A stretch of 64,000 nucleotides of DNA from positions 800,001-864,000 of the forward strand of contig CAWBZV010000002.1 in the NCBI GenBank assembly GCA_963793305.1, in the 5' to 3' direction. The translations under genes were made by a program, and so were the position numbers. The notes under the pieces are model-generated. The model did not search any database. It was not told the origin of the DNA and saw nothing but the letters and a program-made list of their open reading frames with translations. Below are positions 16,774 through 26,999 of the stretch, piece by piece; position 1 is the stretch's first letter, and the number at the start of each line of letters is the position of its first letter. The DNA comes from an uncultured Gemmatimonadales bacterium. GTDB taxonomy: Bacteria; Gemmatimonadota; Gemmatimonadetes; Gemmatimonadales; Gemmatimonadaceae.

Positions 16774-16858
16774 CGGAGGGCGAGGGACTCGAACCCCCAA
16801 GCGGCTTTCGCCGCGCCAGTTTTCAAGACTGGTGCAATAGCCATTCTGCCAGCCCTCC
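16774..16858 (-). tRNA. tRNA-Ser (anticodon TGA), CCA not encoded
   Basis: GGAGGGC acceptor stem, CCAGT-CTTGAAA-ACTGG anticodon arm, long variable arm GCGGC-GAAA-GCCGC, TTCGAGT T-loop, G73. Confidence 0.97.
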
Positions 16859-17018
16859 TGACAACGTCACAAGCTATTGGCGCTGTGACGCTTGAGCAAC
16901 TTACTAGCGCGGCACCGCGCGCCGCGTCTTCGGCGAAGTATGACTCGGGCGCGTGCTCAGCGAGAAAGCTGGGGATAAGCAAGCTGGCCTACACTGCGGA
17001 ATGCTATGGGCGCGGGTT

Positions 17019-17151
17019 AACGCTTGGCGTTTCGGCGCGTGGCCACTTGCTCGTGGTAGTGCATACCGATGTCGAGGACGAAATTCGACTCATTTCGGCT
17101 CGACAGGCAACCCCGCGCGAGCGACGCCAATACGAAGAACACGGCCCGTAA
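17019..17151 (+). pseudogene. brnT: BrnT family toxin, 5'-truncated remnant
   Basis: Only the C-terminal half is present: LGVSARGHLLVVVHTDVEDEIRLISARQATPRERRQYEE. The N-terminal FEWD..K...N..KHG motif is absent. Confidence 0.75.
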
Positions 17152-17168
17152 AGTGGCCGTCTGTCGCA

Positions 17169-17345
17169 ATGGCTGACGACGAAATGCGAGACGAGTACGA
17201 TTTCAGCGGCGGCGTACGTGGGAAGTACGCGGCGCGCTACGCGCAGGGCACGAACATAGTCGTGCTCGATCGCGACGTAGCCGAGATCTTTCCGACATCG
17301 CGTCGTTTGGACTATCAGTTGCCGCACTCGTTGTCTCGCTGGTAA
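17169..17345 (+). pseudogene. BrnA-like antitoxin, 3'-truncated
   Basis: MADDEMRDEYDFSGGVRGKYAARYAQGTNIVVLDRDVAEIFPTS, then unrelated sequence; the expected 'AVNxALR' end is missing. Confidence 0.7.
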
Positions 17346-17807
17346 CCGCATGGGCCACCATGTGGCGTCGTGGTCGCGTCTGCATGACGCAGCCGACGCT
17401 CATTCACTTTGGGTTCGATCGAAGCGTGACGAGCGACGGTGTCAATCTGAAGGCGAGGATCTATCTACGCACCTTGCTGTTCAGCAGTGGAAAGCACGGG
17501 AACATTGTTGAGAACATGTACATGCGGGTCCGTCGCGGAGATACGGTCCAGACATTCAATGTCTGGGTTGCCACCGGATGGGACGGAATTCGTCTTTAGA
17601 GAGGGGGAGTATACCCTCGAGATGTGCGCGACACTGTTCCGGGTAAGGCAGCCGATCAAACTACACGAGTCCAAGCTCTCGCTTCGAGTTACGGATGCGA
17701 ACATCATGTCAGACACTCGCGCGGGTTGCTATTTCGATTGGAGTCCAGAGTCGGCACGCTATCATAATCACGTCGAGTCTGCGCCGCGGCCAGCCTTGAG
17801 AGAGTAG
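17291..17807 (+). pseudogene. Hypothetical N-terminal-TM protein, start lost and internally frameshifted (~17566)
   Basis: One frame reads SDIASFGLSVAALVVSLVTAWATMWRRGRVCMTQPT...FNVWV, then continues in another frame as LPPDGTEFVFREGEY...YFDWSPES. Confidence 0.6.
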
Positions 17808-17957
17808 CCGCTGGCAAATTTGGTGGTACTCCGGCCAACCACCCGGAAATGAGTGATATCACTCGACGAGAATCACCCGCGTCTTGCTTGTCGCTATGGC
17901 TGGCACTTGTGTTCGGCGGCTGCCGACGGCGACCGGTCGTCGCACTCCGGTAACCCG

Positions 17958-18581
17958 TCAGACGCGCCGCGGCAGGAGCACCAAGTCGGCCGCTTCCTCA
18001 GCATCTTTGAGGAGCGTCTTGCGCGGCGTGCCTATCCGCGCTCGCATGGTCAAGCCACGAGCAAAATCCGTGACTTGGATCGCGCGCACGACTACCGGAA
18101 AGTCAGGCGGGATGTCTCCCGCACAGATCCCGTCCCGGAAACGGCGCTCCACCAGCGCCGCGGCGCCCGCGACCGCGCTCTGCAGGAACCGCCGAACCTC
18201 AGCGTCGTTCACGAGCGGCGCGACGCATTCCAGAAGGCACCCCCGGGCGGACCCTTTCTCGGTCGCACTTTCGACGGCGTACCTCAGAAAGCCCGCGATC
18301 GAGTCGCGAAGACCCTGTGGCGAGAGGAGCGCCTTCGCGGCTGATGCGCCCTTCCGTTCTGCGTACGCCCTAAGAACGCGCAAGAATATCGCCCGCTTGT
18401 CCCCAAAGACGGCATACAGGCTCGGCCGTCCCACACCCATTCCGGCGACGAGATCGTCAATCGTCACTCCGTCGTAGCCCTTCGACCAGAACACCTGAGT
18501 CGCCTTTTCCAGCGCCCCCGTCTCGTCGAAGCTGCGCGGTCGACCCCGCGGCCTAGCGTTATTTTGAATCATTTGGTTCAA
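17958..18581 (-). CDS. TetR/AcrR family regulator (ComR-like)
   Basis: RGRPRSFDE...FWSKGYDGVTIDDLVAGMGVGRPSLYAVFGDK. Confidence 0.95.
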   Translation of the reverse strand: MNQMIQNNARPRGRPRSFDETGALEKATQVFWSKGYDGVTIDDLVAGMGVGRPSLYAVFGDKRAIFLRVLRAYAERKGASAAKALLSPQGLRDSIAGFLRYAVESATEKGSARGCLLECVAPLVNDAEVRRFLQSAVAGAAALVERRFRDGICAGDIPPDFPVVVRAIQVTDFARGLTMRARIGTPRKTLLKDAEEAADLVLLPRRV

Positions 18582-18632
18582 AACTCATTGACAATGGCCA
18601 TCGCACCAATAATATATAACTGAATAGTTCGA
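18562..18632. promoter_or_regulatory. TetR operator TTTTGAA-N8-TTCAAAA and sigma70-like promoter (TTGACA at 18588, TAATAT at 18610)
   Basis: Inverted repeat at 18562-18583; second AACT-N4-AGTT half-palindrome near 18618-18629. Confidence 0.7.
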
Positions 18633-18699
18633 AATTAGCATGGCACTGGCCTCGCGCGGCCTCACGACTCGACCTTCACCCTTCACCACGGAGACGCCC

Positions 18700-19674
18700 A
18701 TGAAACATTCGATCGCACTCGTCACCGGCACCACCTCCGGGCTCGGTTATGCGGCAGCCAGCATGCTCGCCGCCGAGGGCTGCCGCCAGGTCATCGTCAC
18801 CGGGCGCAGCCTGGCCCGGGTCCAGGAAACGGCCGCTCAGCTCGCGGCTGAGACCAAGACCCAGGTCTTCACGCCGCTGGAGCTGAATCTGAACGCACGG
18901 ACCAGCGTCCAGTCCGCCCTCGCCGAGCTGGTCAAGCGAGGTCGGCCGATCGATTTCCTACTGCTCAATGCAGGGATGGTCGGAGGTAAGAAGCGCGTGC
19001 TCACTGCGGCGGGTATCGAGGAGGATCAGGCCCCGCTCATCGGCCATCATCAACTGACTGTCGGGTTGCTCCGCGCCAACCTGTTGAGCCCCAACGCGCG
19101 GATTGTTATCGCCGGCTCGGAAGCTGCCCGAGGGGACGTCCCTATGTTCAGCTACACCGACGTGGCGGCCTTCGCGGCCAAACACCACCAGGGTGACCGA
19201 ACCGCTGCTGTTGAAGCCCTGGTGCGCAACGGGCCGAACGTGAAGTACGAGCCCAACCGGGCGTATACCGACGCGAAGCTCATTATCGCTTGGTGGGTCG
19301 CGGCGCTGGCGCGCCGGCTACCCTCCGGCATGGCCGTGTACGCTGTCTCGCCCGGTGCGGCGACCGACACCAAGGCGGTGCGAAACGCTGGCCCGGCGTT
19401 GAAGTATCTGTTTATCCCAATCGTGAACCTCATTCCCGGCATGAATCAGACGCCGGAGACCGCGGCCCGTCGGTACCTCCAGGCGTCGGAGTTCGGAACC
19501 GACGTCTCAGGCCAATTCTTCGCCTCGGCGCCGAAGAAGCTCACAGGCCCAATTGAGGCGATGCGCCACCCACACTTTCACGATCGCGCCAACCAGGAAG
19601 CCGCGTGGCAGGCCGTCGTTGAGGTCTCCGGCGTCGACTTGTCTTACCCAGCATCCTTGAGCGCGGTGTCCTGA
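18700..19674 (+). CDS. SDR family oxidoreductase (retinol dehydrogenase/WWOX-like)
   Basis: GGAG RBS before ATG18700; TGTTSGLG, LLNAG, YTDAK. Confidence 0.9.
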   Translation: MKHSIALVTGTTSGLGYAAASMLAAEGCRQVIVTGRSLARVQETAAQLAAETKTQVFTPLELNLNARTSVQSALAELVKRGRPIDFLLLNAGMVGGKKRVLTAAGIEEDQAPLIGHHQLTVGLLRANLLSPNARIVIAGSEAARGDVPMFSYTDVAAFAAKHHQGDRTAAVEALVRNGPNVKYEPNRAYTDAKLIIAWWVAALARRLPSGMAVYAVSPGAATDTKAVRNAGPALKYLFIPIVNLIPGMNQTPETAARRYLQASEFGTDVSGQFFASAPKKLTGPIEAMRHPHFHDRANQEAAWQAVVEVSGVDLSYPASLSAVS

Positions 19675-20361
19675 AGGAGCGCCGGTCGCGGCGAAATGGT
19701 CGCGGTGACCAGAATAAGCATGCGATTGCGGAGCTACGTGGTCGTCCACGGTGTGACCGACCTGGGACCGCCGGTATTCTCTGCGTATGGCACGGCGAGC
19801 GGAAGACGTGCGTTGCTGTGCGTGCTGGTCTGAACCATGATGGCCGAGCATCCTCGGAAACGCCAGAGGCATTCCGAGTCGTGTTCGACAGTCTTCGCCT
19901 GATGCAGATTCGCTGACGCGGCGAGTTCATGTGCTCTCATGATGGGGCTCGCGTGCTGTAAGTGGCGATACGGAACCGCGAGAAGGCGACAGGATAGACG
20001 CTCGGTCCAACCGGTCTATCGAGTAGTCCGCACGCGCGGCGCATGAACGCCGAGGACATCGCGTCAGCACAAGGTCAGCGTCGGACTATCGGTCTCCAGA
20101 TATCCGATTATGCGCCGGCAAGGAGCTTGAGCAGTTGGATGACCGCTGGCATGTACGCCGACCGATAGTGGAAGCTGCGCTTATCCAGCTTGTCAACGAG
20201 GCGACACACCACTTTCTCGATCTTCACCCGAGCGTAATCGGTGACACCGGAGGGGCACAATCTCGCCCACCGCGCGATCGCCGGCGACGAGTCGCCTGCT
20301 CGCGACCCTAGATTGACCACTTCAGGCTTGCCTTCCGATCTCGCATGACGATCTTGCTTGC

Positions 20362-21114
20362 GTGAGACGCTGGATCTATTTGCCGGCCGGCGGCCGAATG
20401 GTCGCGGTTGCGTGGGGGCTCGGGCTGCTCATCTTTCCCATCCTGAGCGCACTGGCGGCGCCGCATATCGAGCGATTGGACCTCCCGGAGCATCCCGGAG
20501 GCGTCGTCCAGTCACTTGTCCTCCTGATGATCGGCCTCGTGGCCAATGGCGCGCTGTTCTTCATTCACATTAACGGCGCGTTCCTGACGTGGCGAACTGC
20601 CGCGCGGCCATTCCTGGTCACCCTGTTCATGCTGCAACTGTGGTGCGGCATCGTCGTTGGCATCTGGCTAATGTGGAACGGCACTGTTGCGCTCGCCGCG
20701 CTCAACGGCCGACCCATTGATGGTCCACTGACCGCCGCGTGCGCGGTCGCTGCGGTTGGCGCGCTCTTGGCGCTTCTCTTGGTATCCGAGTTCTGGAAAG
20801 ATCAGGATGACGATGTCGTCAAGGTGCGCGAAGCTCGGACGAAGGCGCTTGCACTCTATCCCGCCGTTTCGGCGGGAAAGAGCAGCGCCGAAGAGCGGGA
20901 CCGGTTTGTCCAGTTGCTGAAGACATTGAACGAAGAAGCCAAGGCGCTCGAGGCCAGGTTGACGGAGCCGGATCGAACGCTGGCTGGCAAGTGGCGTAAG
21001 GCGGCCAAGCGCTTGTACGACGCGGCATATGGGTATGAAGCGAGCAAGCCATTCACGGAGACGAGCGCAACGGTGGCCGAGGACGAACGACTATTGAAGC
21101 TCGACTACCCCTAG
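20362..21114 (+). CDS. Hypothetical 4-TM membrane protein with a charged C-terminal helical domain
   Basis: Four hydrophobic segments in aa ~13-146, then ~105 charged helical residues; first gene of the operon with the GroEL paralog. Start uncertain. Confidence 0.75.
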   Translation: MRRWIYLPAGGRMVAVAWGLGLLIFPILSALAAPHIERLDLPEHPGGVVQSLVLLMIGLVANGALFFIHINGAFLTWRTAARPFLVTLFMLQLWCGIVVGIWLMWNGTVALAALNGRPIDGPLTAACAVAAVGALLALLLVSEFWKDQDDDVVKVREARTKALALYPAVSAGKSSAEERDRFVQLLKTLNEEAKALEARLTEPDRTLAGKWRKAAKRLYDAAYGYEASKPFTETSATVAEDERLLKLDYP

Positions 21115-21125
21115 CTGGATATCGC

Positions 21126-21704
21126 ATGCCTACGCCGGGACAGGAAATCGCACTCCTCGTAGCGGTGCTCGATGATGACAACCCCGCGATATGGGTGCCG
21201 TGGACGAAAGCATTCGACGTGGTCAAGAAGGAGGTTAGCGCCCAATCGCCGCGATACTCCGAGATCCAGCGCGAGGACGTGTTGCTCCGCATGCACCTGG
21301 AGCTCGACGATCCGAACAAGTTGATGGGGCTTCGGGCGGAGGACATGGTCCATCACGTCGGCGTGGTCGTCGATGGCATCAGCGTCGGGTCGAATAAGCA
21401 TCATGCCCAACAGATCACGGACCGATTGGCTCAGTTGTGCGCGCGACTGAAGACCTGCGCAGACGCGTTCTTCCGATCCACCGGGTTTTATCTCTTCGTT
21501 GCCGGTGTGGAGGAAGGTCACCGGGCGTTTGATAACTCTCAGAAGGCGTTTCGCGAGCAACTCGTCGATCGAGCGGGACAACGGCTCGGCATCGAGCCCA
21601 AGGGTTTATTCGCATTGGAGGTCCTCAATGAGGTGGACCTCGTGCACACCATACGGCACGCGACGGAGCTGGCCATGAGGAACTATTCCTTTAGGGCCCG
21701 CTAA
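21126..21704 (+). CDS. Hypothetical soluble alpha/beta protein (192 aa)
   Basis: 11 nt after the upstream stop; its stop overlaps the groL-like ATG (TAATG). No family recognised. Confidence 0.8.
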
Positions 21705-23584
21705 TGGCGGCGAAAGAGATTCTTTTCAGCGGCGATGCCCGGGAGGCGCTCGTCGCGGGCGCCGAGCGTCTCGCGCAGGCGGTATCCGTGACGCTGGGGC
21801 CGAGAGGAGGCTCGGTTGTCATCCAGCAGGCAGGCGGGGCGCAGCCCTTGGTGTCGAGGGATGGCTACACGGTCGCCCGGAATATTACCCTGAATCGCGA
21901 ATCTGATACGGGGGCGGCCATGCTGCGCGACGTGGCGGAGCACACGGCCAAACAAGTCGGCAATGGAACATCGACCGCCATCGTGCTCGCGCGGGCGATC
22001 TATCGCGAGGGCATCAAGCGTGTGGCCGCCGGTATCGATCCCATGGCCCTCAAGCGTGGTATCGATCGTGCCATTGCCACGATCGTTGACCAGCTCAGAA
22101 AGGCGAGCGTGAAGGTCACCATCTATTCATCGGCGCAGGCCGCGCTGGCGGAAGTCGAGCACGAGACCGGCCGCACGACGCTCGCCAACGTCGCGCGGAC
22201 GTGCGTGGGCTCTGACGTTGCCGACCGGTTGCCGCCAGCGTGGTCGAATCACGACGTGCGCGCGCGCACATTCCTGCCGGTCGACTACTGGCGTCAGGGA
22301 CGCGCGGCCAGTCTGTCGGTCGATACGCTCGCGCAGATCGCCGACCGCGTCGATGATGAGGGACGGCGCCGGGCCGACGAAGCCCACTCGCGATATTCGA
22401 GGCTCTCCGATGTCGCCACGGTGGCCGCGAGTGGTGACGCGGGCGTGGGCGCGATCATCGCCCAGGCGTTCGCGGCGGTCGGGCGAGATGGGGTCATCAC
22501 TATCGTCGACGGACGGGGAGCCGATACCTCAGTGGAAATCGTTCCCGGCATGAGCTTCGACCGGGGCTATCTGTCGCCGTACTTCGTGACCGACACCGCG
22601 AAAGCGGAAGCGGTTCTCGAGGACAGTTACATTCTCCTCTACGACAAGAAAATCTCGTCGATGAAGGATCTGCTCCCGATCCTCGAGAAAATCGCGCAGG
22701 CCGGCAAGCCGCTGCTCATCATCGCCGAGGATGTCGAGGGTGAGGCGCTGGCGACGCTCGTCGTCAATACGATTCGCGGCATCCTGCGTGTGACCGCGGT
22801 CAAAGCGCCGGGGTTCGGCGATCGCCGCACGGCGATGCTGCAGGATATCGCAGTGCTCACGAACGGACGGGTCATCTCCGAGGAAGTCGGCCTCAAGCTC
22901 GAGAACGCGGCCTTGGACGATCTCGGCAAGGCCAAGCGTATCGTCGTCGGCACGGAGAGCACGACAATCATCGAAGATGGACACGAGCGCGGCGATCTCG
23001 TGTCCGGCCGCATCAAGGAGATCCGTTCGGCAATCGACAAGTCGACCTCCGATTACGACAAGGAGAAGCTCCAGGAGCGGCTGGCGAAGCTCGCCGGCGG
23101 CGTGGCGGTGATTAATGTCGGCGCCACGACCGAGTCGGAGATGAAGGAGAAGAAGGCCCGGGTCGAGGACGCGTTGCATGCAACGCGCGCCGCGGTCGAA
23201 GAGGGTATCGTTCCCGGTGGTGGCGTCGCGTTGATTCGCGTGCAGCCGATGCTCACCACGTTCCGGTCGGGCGATGCCGACGAGCAGGCAGGCGTCGAGA
23301 TCGTGCGTGACGCGATCGAGGAGCCCATCCGCGTCATTATGCGAAATGCGGGCGGTGAGGGCTCGATCGTCGTCCAGAAGGTGCGCGAGTCGGACGATGA
23401 CGCGTTCGGTTACAACGCCCTGACCGATACGTACGAGAACCTGATCAGGGCCGGTGTCGTCGATGCGACCAAGGTAACGCGGACGGCATTGCAGAACGCC
23501 GCGTCGCTGTCGGGGCTGCTGTTGACCACGAACGCGCTGGTGGTCGACCTGGCGTACCAGCCCGCCGATGTCGGAGCGACCTGA
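21704..23584 (+). CDS. groL: Divergent GroEL/Cpn60 paralog with a ~90-aa insertion and an altered ATP-binding motif
   Basis: [92 protein letters not shown] replaces GDGTTT. Confidence 0.93.
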
Positions 23585-23586
23585 CA

Positions 23587-25080
23587 ATGCGCTCCAAGAT
23601 ATTCCTACTGATGGTGGCGGTCATCGGGTGCGCTGGCGGCGGCACGGCCCCGAAGTCCCCCTCGATTGCGCTGTCCCTCGTCGGCAGCAATCAGACGGAC
23701 ACGGTCAACACGACGCTGCTGCAAGCGCTGGTGGCGCGTACGCTCCCCCACGAGCTCGTGCAGTTTCAGTCCCTGCCCGATAGCGGCAATCTGTATGGGG
23801 CATTCGTCGAGTCGCTCGCGATACCCGACGCGACGACCCTCATCGCCGACTCGACGGACGCCAACGGGCAAGCGGCTGTCGTCGTCTACCTCGGCCAGAT
23901 AGCCGGACGGGCGCGCATCATCGTCACCGTGCCCAAATATGGTATTGCCGATACGGCCACGTTCACTGTCCAAGCCGGACACCTGGTCGCCATCACGGGC
24001 ATCCCGGCCGATACCACGGTGTACTCCGGGGGTAAGTTTGTGCTGCAGGGCACTCCGGTCGATCGCTTCGGGAATCGACGGACGGATCCCATCTCGTTCC
24101 ACGTCTTGTCCGGTCCGGCCACGCTCTCGGCGGATACCGTGACGGCCACCGCGCTGGGGTTTGCGTACGTCGCGACGACGTCAGGGTCGGTGGCCGATAC
24201 GACATTCATCTCGGTCGTCCCCACCGGGCGCATCGCGGTGTCGCGCAGCCCGTACATTCACATTTTCAATCTCGATGGCACGGACTCGGTGTCCATCCTG
24301 CCGAACATTGGTGGGGTCGGCAACGTGCGTTGGGCTCCGGATGGGAAGTCGCTCGTGTACGATGGGATGTCCGGATGCTCGATCACGGCGATCGGCAACA
24401 ACGCGCCGATCGCCGTCGCGAATCTCAGTGGTGGCGCGGCCGCGCTCCAACTCCCGACATTCTATTACGCGTACTATCCGCAATACGCGCGCGACGGCTC
24501 ACGCATCTACTTCACGATGCTCAATCCCAACGGCCAATTCTGGGAAGGCGATCCCAAGACGCTCGCCATCGATTCGCTCGGTCTCGCGCCGGACCAGGAC
24601 TACGCACCTTCGCCCTCGCCCGACGGATCACAGCTCGCGTATTTCCACGCGACATTGAACGTTACGGGCGTCCTCCGCGTCCTCACCCTGAGCACCAGTG
24701 CGGTGACCGATCTGGGTGTCCCCGCCAATCAACCCGTGTGGTCGCCCGTGTCGAATCAGATCGCGTACGTGGCGGCGGGCACCTGCCAAGGCCAAATCCA
24801 TATCATCAATTCCGACGGCTCCGGCGATCGCCGGCTCTCGCCGAACACGTACAACAGCGGCTTCGACTGGTCGCCCGACGGCGCGTGGATCGTCGCGCTC
24901 AATTCGGTGACGGGAAAGATCGACGTGATAAACGTCGCCTCGGGGCAGGCCCTGCCGCTGACGTTCACGTCGGGATTCAGCTCGCCGGCTTGGTTACCGA
25001 CTACTCCAGCCCCGAGACAAGATACAGCTCCGAAAGAAACCGGGCATAGCCGTACACGTACGATCGGCCATCGGCGCTGA
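23587..25080 (+). CDS. Lipoprotein with Ig-like domains and a TolB-like (PD40/WD40) beta-propeller
   Basis: Lipobox VIG-C15; TDANGQA (Big_1-like); repeated WAPDG/SPDG/WSPDG. Confidence 0.85.
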   Translation: MRSKIFLLMVAVIGCAGGGTAPKSPSIALSLVGSNQTDTVNTTLLQALVARTLPHELVQFQSLPDSGNLYGAFVESLAIPDATTLIADSTDANGQAAVVVYLGQIAGRARIIVTVPKYGIADTATFTVQAGHLVAITGIPADTTVYSGGKFVLQGTPVDRFGNRRTDPISFHVLSGPATLSADTVTATALGFAYVATTSGSVADTTFISVVPTGRIAVSRSPYIHIFNLDGTDSVSILPNIGGVGNVRWAPDGKSLVYDGMSGCSITAIGNNAPIAVANLSGGAAALQLPTFYYAYYPQYARDGSRIYFTMLNPNGQFWEGDPKTLAIDSLGLAPDQDYAPSPSPDGSQLAYFHATLNVTGVLRVLTLSTSAVTDLGVPANQPVWSPVSNQIAYVAAGTCQGQIHIINSDGSGDRRLSPNTYNSGFDWSPDGAWIVALNSVTGKIDVINVASGQALPLTFTSGFSSPAWLPTTPAPRQDTAPKETGHSRTRTIGHRR

Positions 25081-26999
25081 ACAAAATATGCGAGATGGGC
25101 CCGAGACCGGTCATGTCGGTCGGGCTCACCGCGCGGAACGGTTCGCGTTGCCCCGTGAGCACGTTGACACGGTACACCATGACCGGTGCTTGCTTCGCCT
25201 GATACGCGTAGATGAAGCGTGGGTCGGCGGTCCACTCGATTGTCTCGCCGGGCAGGAGACCGGGGATCGCGCGTGGCGCACTGCCGTCGAGTGGGTAGAT
25301 CGAGCCTGCGCCCGCAATGGATTTGCCGTCGGGCGATGGCTCGCACGATGACACGCCGTCCGGCGTCACGGGACGCGGCGCGCCGGCGTCGATGCTTTGA
25401 ATGAAGCAGCGGATCGCATGTCCAGGCTGAGTGGCGGGGAAGACGATCTGCTTGCCGTCAGGAAGCCAGTGGGCGCCGTGCCAATATTGTTGGACGTCGC
25501 CGCGCGGGAGGCGCTTGGCGGCGCCAGCGCCGGTGGGCAGCACCATGAGTTGAGTCGATGCGACGACCGTGGTCGCCCATTTCCCATCGGGTGAGAGGTC
25601 GCCAGCCAGCCCGTCTCCCAGTGGAATCGGGGACGCGGCGCGAAGGTCGCGCATGCCGACAATGTAGTTCGGCCCACTTTGCTCGCTCTGTTCGCTGAAC
25701 AAGACGGTGTTGCCGTCGGCGGAGAGACCGACGGGGAGCGACCAGTCGAGCCACGAGAACGTCGCGTTCGCTGGTCGCGCCAGGCGCCAGGGCCAGCATC
25801 CCCACGCGACAGTCATCGCGCGTGAGCAAGACGCGGCCGTCGGCGGCAACGTCCTGCAAGGTCACGCCACCAGGTGCGCGGTAGAGGAGACGCAGGTGGC
25901 CACGAAGGTCGACCGCGTAGAGATGGCGTTCGACACCGGACTCCGTGGCGGTGAACCACACGTTGGATCCGTCCGGAGACCACGCGAGCCCCTGGGCGCT
26001 TCCCCAGCCGCGAGAGAGGACGGTTCGATGCCCCGAGAGATCGACGACGGCGACGACGCCGTGATCGTCCGGCGCGGCCTCGTGGTCGAGGAAGGCGATC
26101 CGGTCGCCTCTCGGTGATACGCGCGGATGGCTGATCCAGCCCAACGTCTCGTACAGCGCGTGGCCGACGGGGAACTCGAGGCGCTGTTTGCCGGCGACGC
26201 TGTGAACGATCGCCAGCGTCTTCGCGTCAGGCGCATAGTCGGCCCATTCGACATCCTCGGCGATCTGTCGAGGCGACCCGCCGCCCAGCGACACTTGGCC
26301 GAGGGTGCCGCGGAGCGTCAACAAGAAGCGGGGGGCGGCTGATTGGAGGACAGCGACCGCACCGGAGGGGGCCACGGCGAGTAGGTCCGTGCCGTGCAAC
26401 CCCAAGCTGCGAGCGCCCGGGATCTTGGTGTCGGTCGAGTAGATCTCGATCGGACCGCCATCCCAGGCCGCGGAGTAGAGCACGTTGCGGCCGTCCGGGG
26501 CGAAGCGGGCCGAGTAGATCGTGCCGCGCTGGACAGTCAGGCGCTGGAAGTTTGGCGGCTCTTTCCGGGTCGCTCGGTATCCCAAGAATGCGCCGAGTCC
26601 GAGACAGCATGCGGCGACCGCTACTAAGACCGGGATCCGATTCGGGATCGGGGATCTGGAAGGCGGCGCCGTCGGGCTGTCGAGTTTCGCGACAAATCGG
26701 TAGCCCCGGCGCGGCACCGTCTCGATGTAGGACGGATTCTCGGCCGAGTCGCCAAGGGCCGACCGCAGCTTACCGACCGCGACGTTCACGGCGTGGTCGA
26801 AGTCGCCGAAGCTCTCGCGCGGCCAGATCCGGGTCTGAAGCTCCTCGCGCGTGACCAGGTCGCCAGGGCGCTCCAACAGGACCTGGAGGACCTTGAACGG
26901 CTGATCCTGGAGCTTGATGCGCTCGCCGGCTTTCCGGACCTCTCCGGCGTGGAGATCGGCCTCGAATGGGCCGAATCGGATGCTCCCGTTCTGTGTCAT
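25001..26999 (-). CDS. CadC-like winged-helix + TM + PD40 beta-propeller protein, +1 frameshift at ~25760
   Basis: KLQDQPFKVLQVLLERPG...IETVPRRGYRF OmpR/PhoB-type wHTH; TM; SPDG repeats. Frame changes at CGC GAC [G] TTC TCG TGG. Confidence 0.88.

Follow-up and report, generated by a model that had tools for sequence, protein, structure and literature searches.

How can a GroEL, a protein that ranks among the most conserved in both length and sequence, come to carry some 90 additional residues at the junction between its equatorial and intermediate domains, the pivot of the ATP-driven cycle, and is such an addition real, selected and of use to the chaperonin? The question is raised by a 64,000-nucleotide stretch of DNA from an uncultured soil bacterium of the Gemmatimonadales, family Gemmatimonadaceae (contig CAWBZV010000002.1, positions 800,001 to 864,000 of the forward strand; hereafter the window), in which a GroEL (Cpn60) paralog of 626 residues (21704..23584, + strand) is interrupted at this joint by residues 137-232 (22112..22399, +). 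To our knowledge, the equatorial/intermediate joint of GroEL is almost never altered. We find that the insert is not an assembly artefact, that it recurs, unchanged in position and length, in four further assembled records belonging to two lineages and in contigs of two sequencing runs, and that it is coding and under constraint. We favour, with moderate confidence, a model where the gene encodes a lineage-specific, neofunctionalised third GroEL paralog, that is, a specialised chaperonin with a helical appendage at its lower hinge.

A third GroEL paralog and the site of its insertion

The stop-free reading frame scores above the cut-offs of both Pfam PF00118 (Cpn60_TCP1; 233.3 bits against 34.3) and the NCBIfam GroEL equivalog model TIGR02348 (695.9 bits against 582.1), and far under the cut-off of 600 set for the chlamydial GroEL variant models (218.8 and 168.5 bits); a Pfam scan of the protein returned no family besides Cpn60_TCP1. 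HMMER comparison with solved chains gave E = 1e-166 for E. coli chains and E = 9e-185 for 9rwr, the best solved chain. A full-length AlphaFold2 (AF2) model, with a mean predicted local distance difference test score (pLDDT) of 78.8 and a predicted template modelling score (pTM) of 0.72, retrieved GroEL/Hsp60 chains as all of its top Foldseek matches (lowest E 4e-58, with TMt reaching 0.93), and the protein is predicted to adopt the three-domain fold of equatorial, intermediate and apical domains, with the insert modelled without confidence.

Aligned by HMMER to solved GroELs, the protein matches in two separate stretches, residues 1-136 corresponding to chain residues 1-134 and residues 233-614 to chain residues 141-519, with residue 234 equivalent to residue 144 of the 548-residue E. 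coli chain 4pkn_G. The resulting alignment gap places the insert between E. coli-equivalent residues 135 and 144 and, since 98 residues take the place of 8 in canonical GroEL, the net gain is 90. Passages of PMC2664929 give the limits of the GroEL domains as Met1-Pro137 (equatorial) and Cys138-Gly192 (intermediate), which puts the insert exactly at the boundary between the equatorial (E1) and intermediate (I1) segments. Its ends read KVT/IYSS and HSRYS/RLSD, and its best-conserved block spans aa 191-225 (22274..22378, +), where 32 of the 35 positions are invariant in a four-sequence alignment. A first-pass annotation of this DNA had proposed an in-frame insertion of about 90 residues at the equatorial/intermediate hinge and had ascribed to it the 626-residue length of the protein; the HMMER alignment, together with the domain limits in those passages, bears out the insertion, its site and its effect on length, and refines its interval from 22121-22390 (aa 140-229) to 22112-22399. 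The peptides that it quoted are found at aa 131-139 (LRKASVKVT), aa 159-171 (13 letters) and aa 232-245 (14 letters).

The genome contains two further cpn60 loci, termed C5 and C21, each of which pairs groEL with groES, and these are the two groES genes that lie elsewhere in the genome. No groES adjoins the 626-residue paralog, the genes upstream of which match neither Cpn10 nor any other family, and the protein lacks the Gly-Met C-terminal tail (GGMGGMY) with which the C5 and C21 copies end. A Gly-Met-rich tail is typical of housekeeping GroEL copies without being strictly defining, and the same holds for the groES-groEL operon, typical of GroEL and likewise not defining. Relative to canonical group I GroEL (E. 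coli; 1aon, 4pkn, 4aaq), with which homology is full-length and the apical and C-terminal parts are conserved, the paralog differs in having 96 residues in place of the 8-residue E1/I1 link and in the absence of the tail, of an adjacent groES and of a CIRCE (controlling inverted repeat of chaperone expression) element. It resembles the non-canonical extra copies of other bacteria (mycobacterial Cpn60.1/GroEL1, Myxococcus GroEL2 and chlamydial GroEL2/3), which likewise stand alone without groES or Gly-Met tail and for which, as here, a divergent function is expected. Stand-alone and duplicate groELs are common in bacteria according to the abstracts of PMC5406781 and PMC11978752 and passages of the review PMC5904260, and the passages on non-canonical extra copies describe no large insertion at the equatorial/intermediate boundary, unlike the case of the present protein.

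Recurrence, constraint and possible role of the insert

The insert is found in P0001 (626 aa, 95% identical overall), in P0002 (a partial protein, 81% identical, named by NCBI as coming from a Gemmatimonadaceae metagenome-assembled genome), in P0242 (624 aa, encoded on a 46.8-kb contig) and in L101, a metagenome contig with an orthologous groEL, and both of its junctions are crossed in each of these four records. Contigs from sequencing run X1, possibly the sample from which this genome was recovered, bridge both junctions as well (21700-22186 and 22164-22704), while a contig from run X4, which belongs to a different study, covers 22131-22405 inside the insert region and carries P0001-type variants. 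A search for other Cpn60 proteins with an insert at this site had been suggested in the first-pass annotation, and these records are its yield. Of the two misgivings voiced there, that of an assembly chimera falls away with the junctions spanned in independent records, and that of absence from homologues stands for all of those outside the two-lineage clade.

An open frame alone is weak evidence of coding, as at 67% G+C about 0.11 of 96-codon stretches are open by chance, and other frames across the insert region are also open. The evidence lies in the comparison between the window and L101, which is gapless over 538 codons: within the insert, 53 differences are distributed 12/12/29 by codon position, with a G+C content at third codon positions (GC3) of 0.81, and no indel is found at 18% nucleotide divergence. 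The ratio of nonsynonymous to synonymous substitution rates (dN/dS, or omega) is 0.27 in the insert (0.36 in its core, aa 142-217) and 0.19 and 0.17 in the flanks, and Fisher's test of synonymous versus nonsynonymous proportions in the insert gives p = 1.2e-5.

In the model that we favour, the gene would have arisen by duplication of a resident C21-type groEL, followed by rapid change of its first 282 residues, which comprise the N-terminal equatorial and first intermediate segments around the nucleotide pocket and lower hinge; within this part, a mostly helical sequence of 96 residues would have taken the place of the 8-residue domain link. Purifying selection now acts on the whole of the gene, and on the insert with it, and the C-terminal half has stayed canonical, as has the apical domain, to which substrates and GroES bind. 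We infer that ATP-driven chaperonin activity is retained, and the paralog would then assemble into rings and use GroES encoded elsewhere in the genome. The insert itself would be a translated, surface-exposed appendage with its last helix extending helix F, and it might either retune ATP-driven closure at the lower hinge or serve as the site where a dedicated partner or client docks. The orphan proteins described below, which appear to be co-transcribed with the chaperonin, are possible candidates for that part. The link probably lies on the outer wall of the cylinder, and an outward-facing domain that binds a partner or target had been the proposal of the first-pass annotation.

Structure prediction with a Foldseek search, a check likewise suggested in the first-pass annotation, was informative in part: helices are predicted in the insert, at low confidence and with no fold match. 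The full-length AF2 model draws helices at 144-168, 182-189, 193-197 and 206-215, plus one at 218-241 that runs straight into helix F, and a fragment model of aa 113-262 reaches pLDDT 70-88 over aa 157-227 with a long helix 206-237 continuous with helix F. In the models, the C-terminal end of the conserved block at aa 191-225 runs into this long helix, which would extend helix F N-terminally.

Relatives of the insert sequence are few. A search of 1.84 billion representative proteins with the insert retrieved P0002 as its sole relative, and in the ESM Atlas the best score was 0.87, under the usable level. Locus scans of genome and metagenome contigs found the insert, among the matches listed, only in L101, and say little on its distribution because they are dominated by the conserved MALKRGID pattern. 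Insert-less forms with the divergent N-terminus are absent among 5.8 billion proteins, N-terminal identity falling from 85% to at most 57%.

Several observations weigh against a selected, helical and functional appendage. On the structural side, the full-length model leaves aa 142-217 under pLDDT 50, confidence on the insert is reached by just one of the five models in the fragment run (65.5 versus 36-42), Foldseek with the insert fold returned no match below E = 1.6, and VIA-align returned a best Z of 6.8, for designed helical proteins, which is the chance range for helical models. On the evolutionary side, the dN/dS estimate is one pairwise comparison with 53 differences, the omega of the insert is above that of its flanks, the clade that carries the insert is tiny, with two lineages, and no copy of the insert turned up among 400 genomes sampled across the family, of which 5 belong to the same genus (7 weak matches, with E from 8e-4 to 7e-3, were treated as noise because all contain stop codons). 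Finally, RNA run X16 covers only conserved groEL parts, evidently those of other organisms, and leaves the insert uncovered, which makes it neutral as to transcription, and an Asn at position 87, in the nucleotide site, is unique to this genome.

Part of this evidence, namely the low pLDDT and orphan sequence, an insert omega of 0.27-0.36 above that of the flanks, the very narrow distribution on a variable genomic island and the Asn87 allele, would also be expected of a tolerated passenger, a largely unstructured and functionless loop in an accessory paralog that the cell could do without, retained solely because a lost reading frame would be harmful or because the paralog is young. We consider this reading unlikely, given that omega is significantly under 1, that no indel has accrued in 96 residues across lineages 18% different in nucleotides, that the block at aa 191-225 is invariant at 32 of 35 positions, and that the flanking segments are themselves constrained (omega 0.19).

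The Asn87 allele (codon AAT, 21962..21964, +) occupies the Asp position of GDGTTT, which, with TLGP and GGG, we take to make up the nucleotide-site motifs of GroEL; TLGP and GGG are present in the paralog, and the GDGTTT site reads GNGTST. Asp stands at position 87 (GDGTST) in P0001, P0002, P0242 and L101, and a near-identical X1 contig has G at 21962. As Asp87 is presumably required for ATP hydrolysis, the allele may be impaired or inactivating, or else a base error. At position 22187 the window encodes N162 where the others have D, a second G-to-A difference of the same kind.

Mosaic divergence of the paralog and origin of the insert

Divergence from the two resident copies is distributed unevenly along the protein. 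The N-terminal equatorial segment (aa 1-136; 21704..22111, +) is strongly remodelled, with 53-54% identity to the C5 and C21 copies, whose own mutual identity over the N-terminal part is 89-94% (89% over aa 1-136). The N-terminal intermediate segment beyond the insert, which holds helices F and G (aa 233-282; 22400..22549, +), is remodelled as well, aa 233-275 being 44% identical to the C5 copy, and the remainder (aa 283-615; 22550..23548, +), made up of the apical domain and the C-terminal intermediate and equatorial segments, is conserved, aa 276-615 being 78-85% identical to the C21 copy. The break is sharp and falls at the start of the apical domain, with 44-54% identity to the resident GroELs over 21704-22549 versus 78-85% over 22550-23548; either recombination or domain-specific acceleration may lie behind it.

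The same partition is seen at highly conserved positions, defined as those at least 95% conserved among 62 canonical GroELs. Replacements number 19 of 62 for the N-terminal equatorial segment and 7 of 22 for the first intermediate one (31-32%), against 7 of 84 for the apical domain, 0 of 23 for the second intermediate segment and 1 of 29 for the C-terminal equatorial one. In the apical domain, 77 of the 84 are thus unchanged, within a set that presumably includes the GroES contacts. The replacements include K80H, D83K and the loss of the lysine equivalent to K327, as well as R36G, N37S and K42Q in the equatorial stem-loop region; K80, D83 and K327 are described in passages of PMC2664929 as salt-bridge partners that switch in the allosteric cycle. 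An N-terminal omega of 0.19 between the two lineages suggests a burst of change followed by stabilisation. Synonymous divergence (dS) cannot separate a foreign 5' part from fast evolution, as the proportion of synonymous differences (pS) is 0.59-0.70 in the N-terminal part and 0.54-0.60 between the two resident copies; N-terminal identities correlate weakly with those of the rest of the protein (rho 0.51).

As to the resident copies, the C5 locus is a groES-groEL pair with a GroEL of 545 aa and a Gly-Met tail. At C21, the groEL gene (L003 939-2577, in G000) lies downstream of a 102-aa groES; in this assembly, a frameshift near residue 183 breaks it into two reading frames, which reflects either a frameshift pseudogene or an assembly indel. 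A CIRCE-like inverted repeat precedes this operon (L003 558-584, upstream of groES), with one mismatch to the consensus. Neither the 4.5-kb C5 locus nor any part of the 64-kb window yielded a CIRCE element, so that regulation probably differs among the three groEL copies.

Remodelling on this scale raises the question of whether the paralog still forms canonical rings, which some non-canonical GroELs do not, or whether it acts instead as a lower oligomer or holdase in which the insert and the N-terminal segment make up a new interface or a site for a non-protein ligand. The stem-loop changes R36G, N37S and K42Q and the other replacements at highly conserved N-terminal positions would fit such a protein, as would the absence of the Gly-Met tail and of groES, and a passage of PMC5904260 attributes the oligomerisation failure of mycobacterial GroEL1 to its equatorial domain. 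We nonetheless regard loss of the ring as distinctly improbable, since the C-terminal equatorial, apical and second intermediate segments are almost unchanged, which argues for a retained ring with its GroES and substrate contacts.

With a ring-forming, specialised paralog as the preferred reading, the source of the additional residues can be considered. The first-pass annotation had likened aa 159-171 to a degenerate second copy of helix F, which would make the insert a tandem duplication of the helix-F coding segment. Three weak direct repeats of 17 nt (76% identity), on TLANVA, TLAQIA and RLSDVA, could be read this way, and the best of four windows scored with a position-specific scoring matrix (PSSM) was equalled or beaten by only 211 of 5000 shuffles. 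The other three windows were equalled or beaten by 1829, 2673 and 2908 of 5000 shuffles, however, and a pairwise BLOSUM62 score of 12 by 2393 of 5000; the insert scores negative bits against a profile built from 62 canonical GroELs; and when it was compared with all three groEL genes, in six frames and as nucleotides, matches stayed at chance level, with nothing significant in any frame or at the nucleotide level. The resemblance is thus not borne out by profile, shuffle or self-comparison tests, and because these are at chance level the 17-nt repeats are not evidence of duplication, an origin that we hold to be very improbable.

Least credible of all is extra DNA lying outside the mature protein, as an intein, an intron, a repeat of the miniature inverted-repeat transposable element (MITE) or Rickettsia palindromic element (RPE) kind, or an assembly chimera, for which the abrupt boundaries and lack of homologues, and nothing else, could be adduced, and against which stand the absence of any Hint/intein domain in Pfam, a size of 96 aa under that of known mini-inteins, a protein-coding substitution pattern and identical junctions in five independent assemblies.

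Individual element types were also excluded in turn. The absence of intein hallmarks claimed in the first-pass annotation is upheld, there being no Pfam match on the 90-residue piece and neither an N-terminal Cys/Ser nor a C-terminal His-Asn followed by Cys/Ser/Thr at the boundaries; known mini-inteins are longer than 96 aa. For a self-splicing intron or RNA element, Rfam gives three chance-level matches (E >= 1.6), below gathering scores and none of them in the insert. Elsewhere in the 5.7-Mb genome the insert DNA has only chance matches of at most 33 nt and is thus single-copy, and as regards a MITE- or RPE-like element, local repeats are weak and short, with no terminal repeats beyond chance. 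Rickettsia palindromic elements likewise place extra in-frame residues, tolerated, inside conserved proteins; they are multi-copy DNA repeats, however, in which respects the single-copy insert without such terminal repeats differs.

Cassette, island and wider significance

Four co-directional open reading frames are tightly packed here, and GroEL is encoded by the third. The first (20362..21114, +) encodes a 250-aa orphan with a hydrophobic N-terminal half, from which we read it as a putative membrane protein, and a charged C-terminal half, and its C-terminal part is conserved upstream in L101. The second (21126..21704, +) encodes a 192-aa orphan, the stop codon of which overlaps the groEL start (TAATG), an operon-like arrangement kept in L101; its sole relative is P0122 (63% identity), and it holds the same position in L101. 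Relatives of both orphans are found only adjoining orthologous groEL, and neither orphan matches a family in Pfam, NCBIfam, PADLOC or PHROGs or anything in the Atlas. The fourth gene (23587..25080, +) begins 3 nt after the groEL stop and encodes a 497-aa protein with TolB/PD40-like beta-propeller repeats, the TolB propeller match of 46.9 bits being far under the cut-off, and an N-terminus that reads as lipoprotein-like. Across the two orphan genes the G+C content dips slightly, to 0.59-0.62. A complex prediction pairing the insert fragment with the 192-aa protein scored 0.00, with the fold of the partner uncertain, and counts neither for nor against binding. Downstream, on the opposite strand, 25458-26999 (-) encodes an N-terminal Trans_reg_C DNA-binding domain together with weak PD40/TolB-like repeats, as in the neighbouring 23587-25080.

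The cassette lies on a variable island of about 8.1 kb (16865..24999), as delimited by comparison with three genomes of the same genus (G062, G221 and G120), which match the window from 12000 to 16.9k and again from 24999 on, with nothing between; in same-genus genomes, the flanks of the island enclose 1.1-6 kb of different DNA. The left border abuts a tRNA-Ser(tga) gene (16774-16858, -), a BrnT-toxin-like fragment lies at the island start (16885-17148), and the island also holds a TetR regulator and a short-chain dehydrogenase. More doubtfully, the insert and the remodelled residues 1-282 could together constitute a built-in module that couples the chaperonin to its cassette partners, giving a client-dedicated or membrane-docked GroEL that is mobile as a unit; on this same doubtful footing, the partners would be the 250-aa membrane protein and the 192-aa orphan, perhaps joined by the propeller lipoprotein.

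Additions to chaperonin subunits have parallels elsewhere. Group II chaperonins carry a helical protrusion that serves as a built-in lid, and by analogy the insert may likewise be a helical addition that alters the working of the machine. Vertebrate BBS10, BBS12 and MKKS are divergent chaperonin paralogs that keep the three-domain plan and have lineage-specific insertions, as described in passages of PMC2846930; they are eukaryotic and group II-derived, and have no sequence relation to the insert. Judging from the abstracts and passages retrieved by full-text literature searches, extra stand-alone, tail-less GroELs and insertions in divergent eukaryotic chaperonin-like proteins are already known, and none of this material describes a large conserved insertion where the equatorial and intermediate domains of a group I chaperonin meet.

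A selected addition of 90 residues at the pivot of GroEL, with remodelled segments on both sides of it, would amount to a natural experiment. It could show the extent to which the hinge, along with its network of allosteric salt bridges, lends itself to rebuilding, as well as the way in which paralogs of chaperonins specialise; and if the cassette partners turn out to be clients or docking factors, the locus would offer an example of a portable, dedicated chaperonin module.

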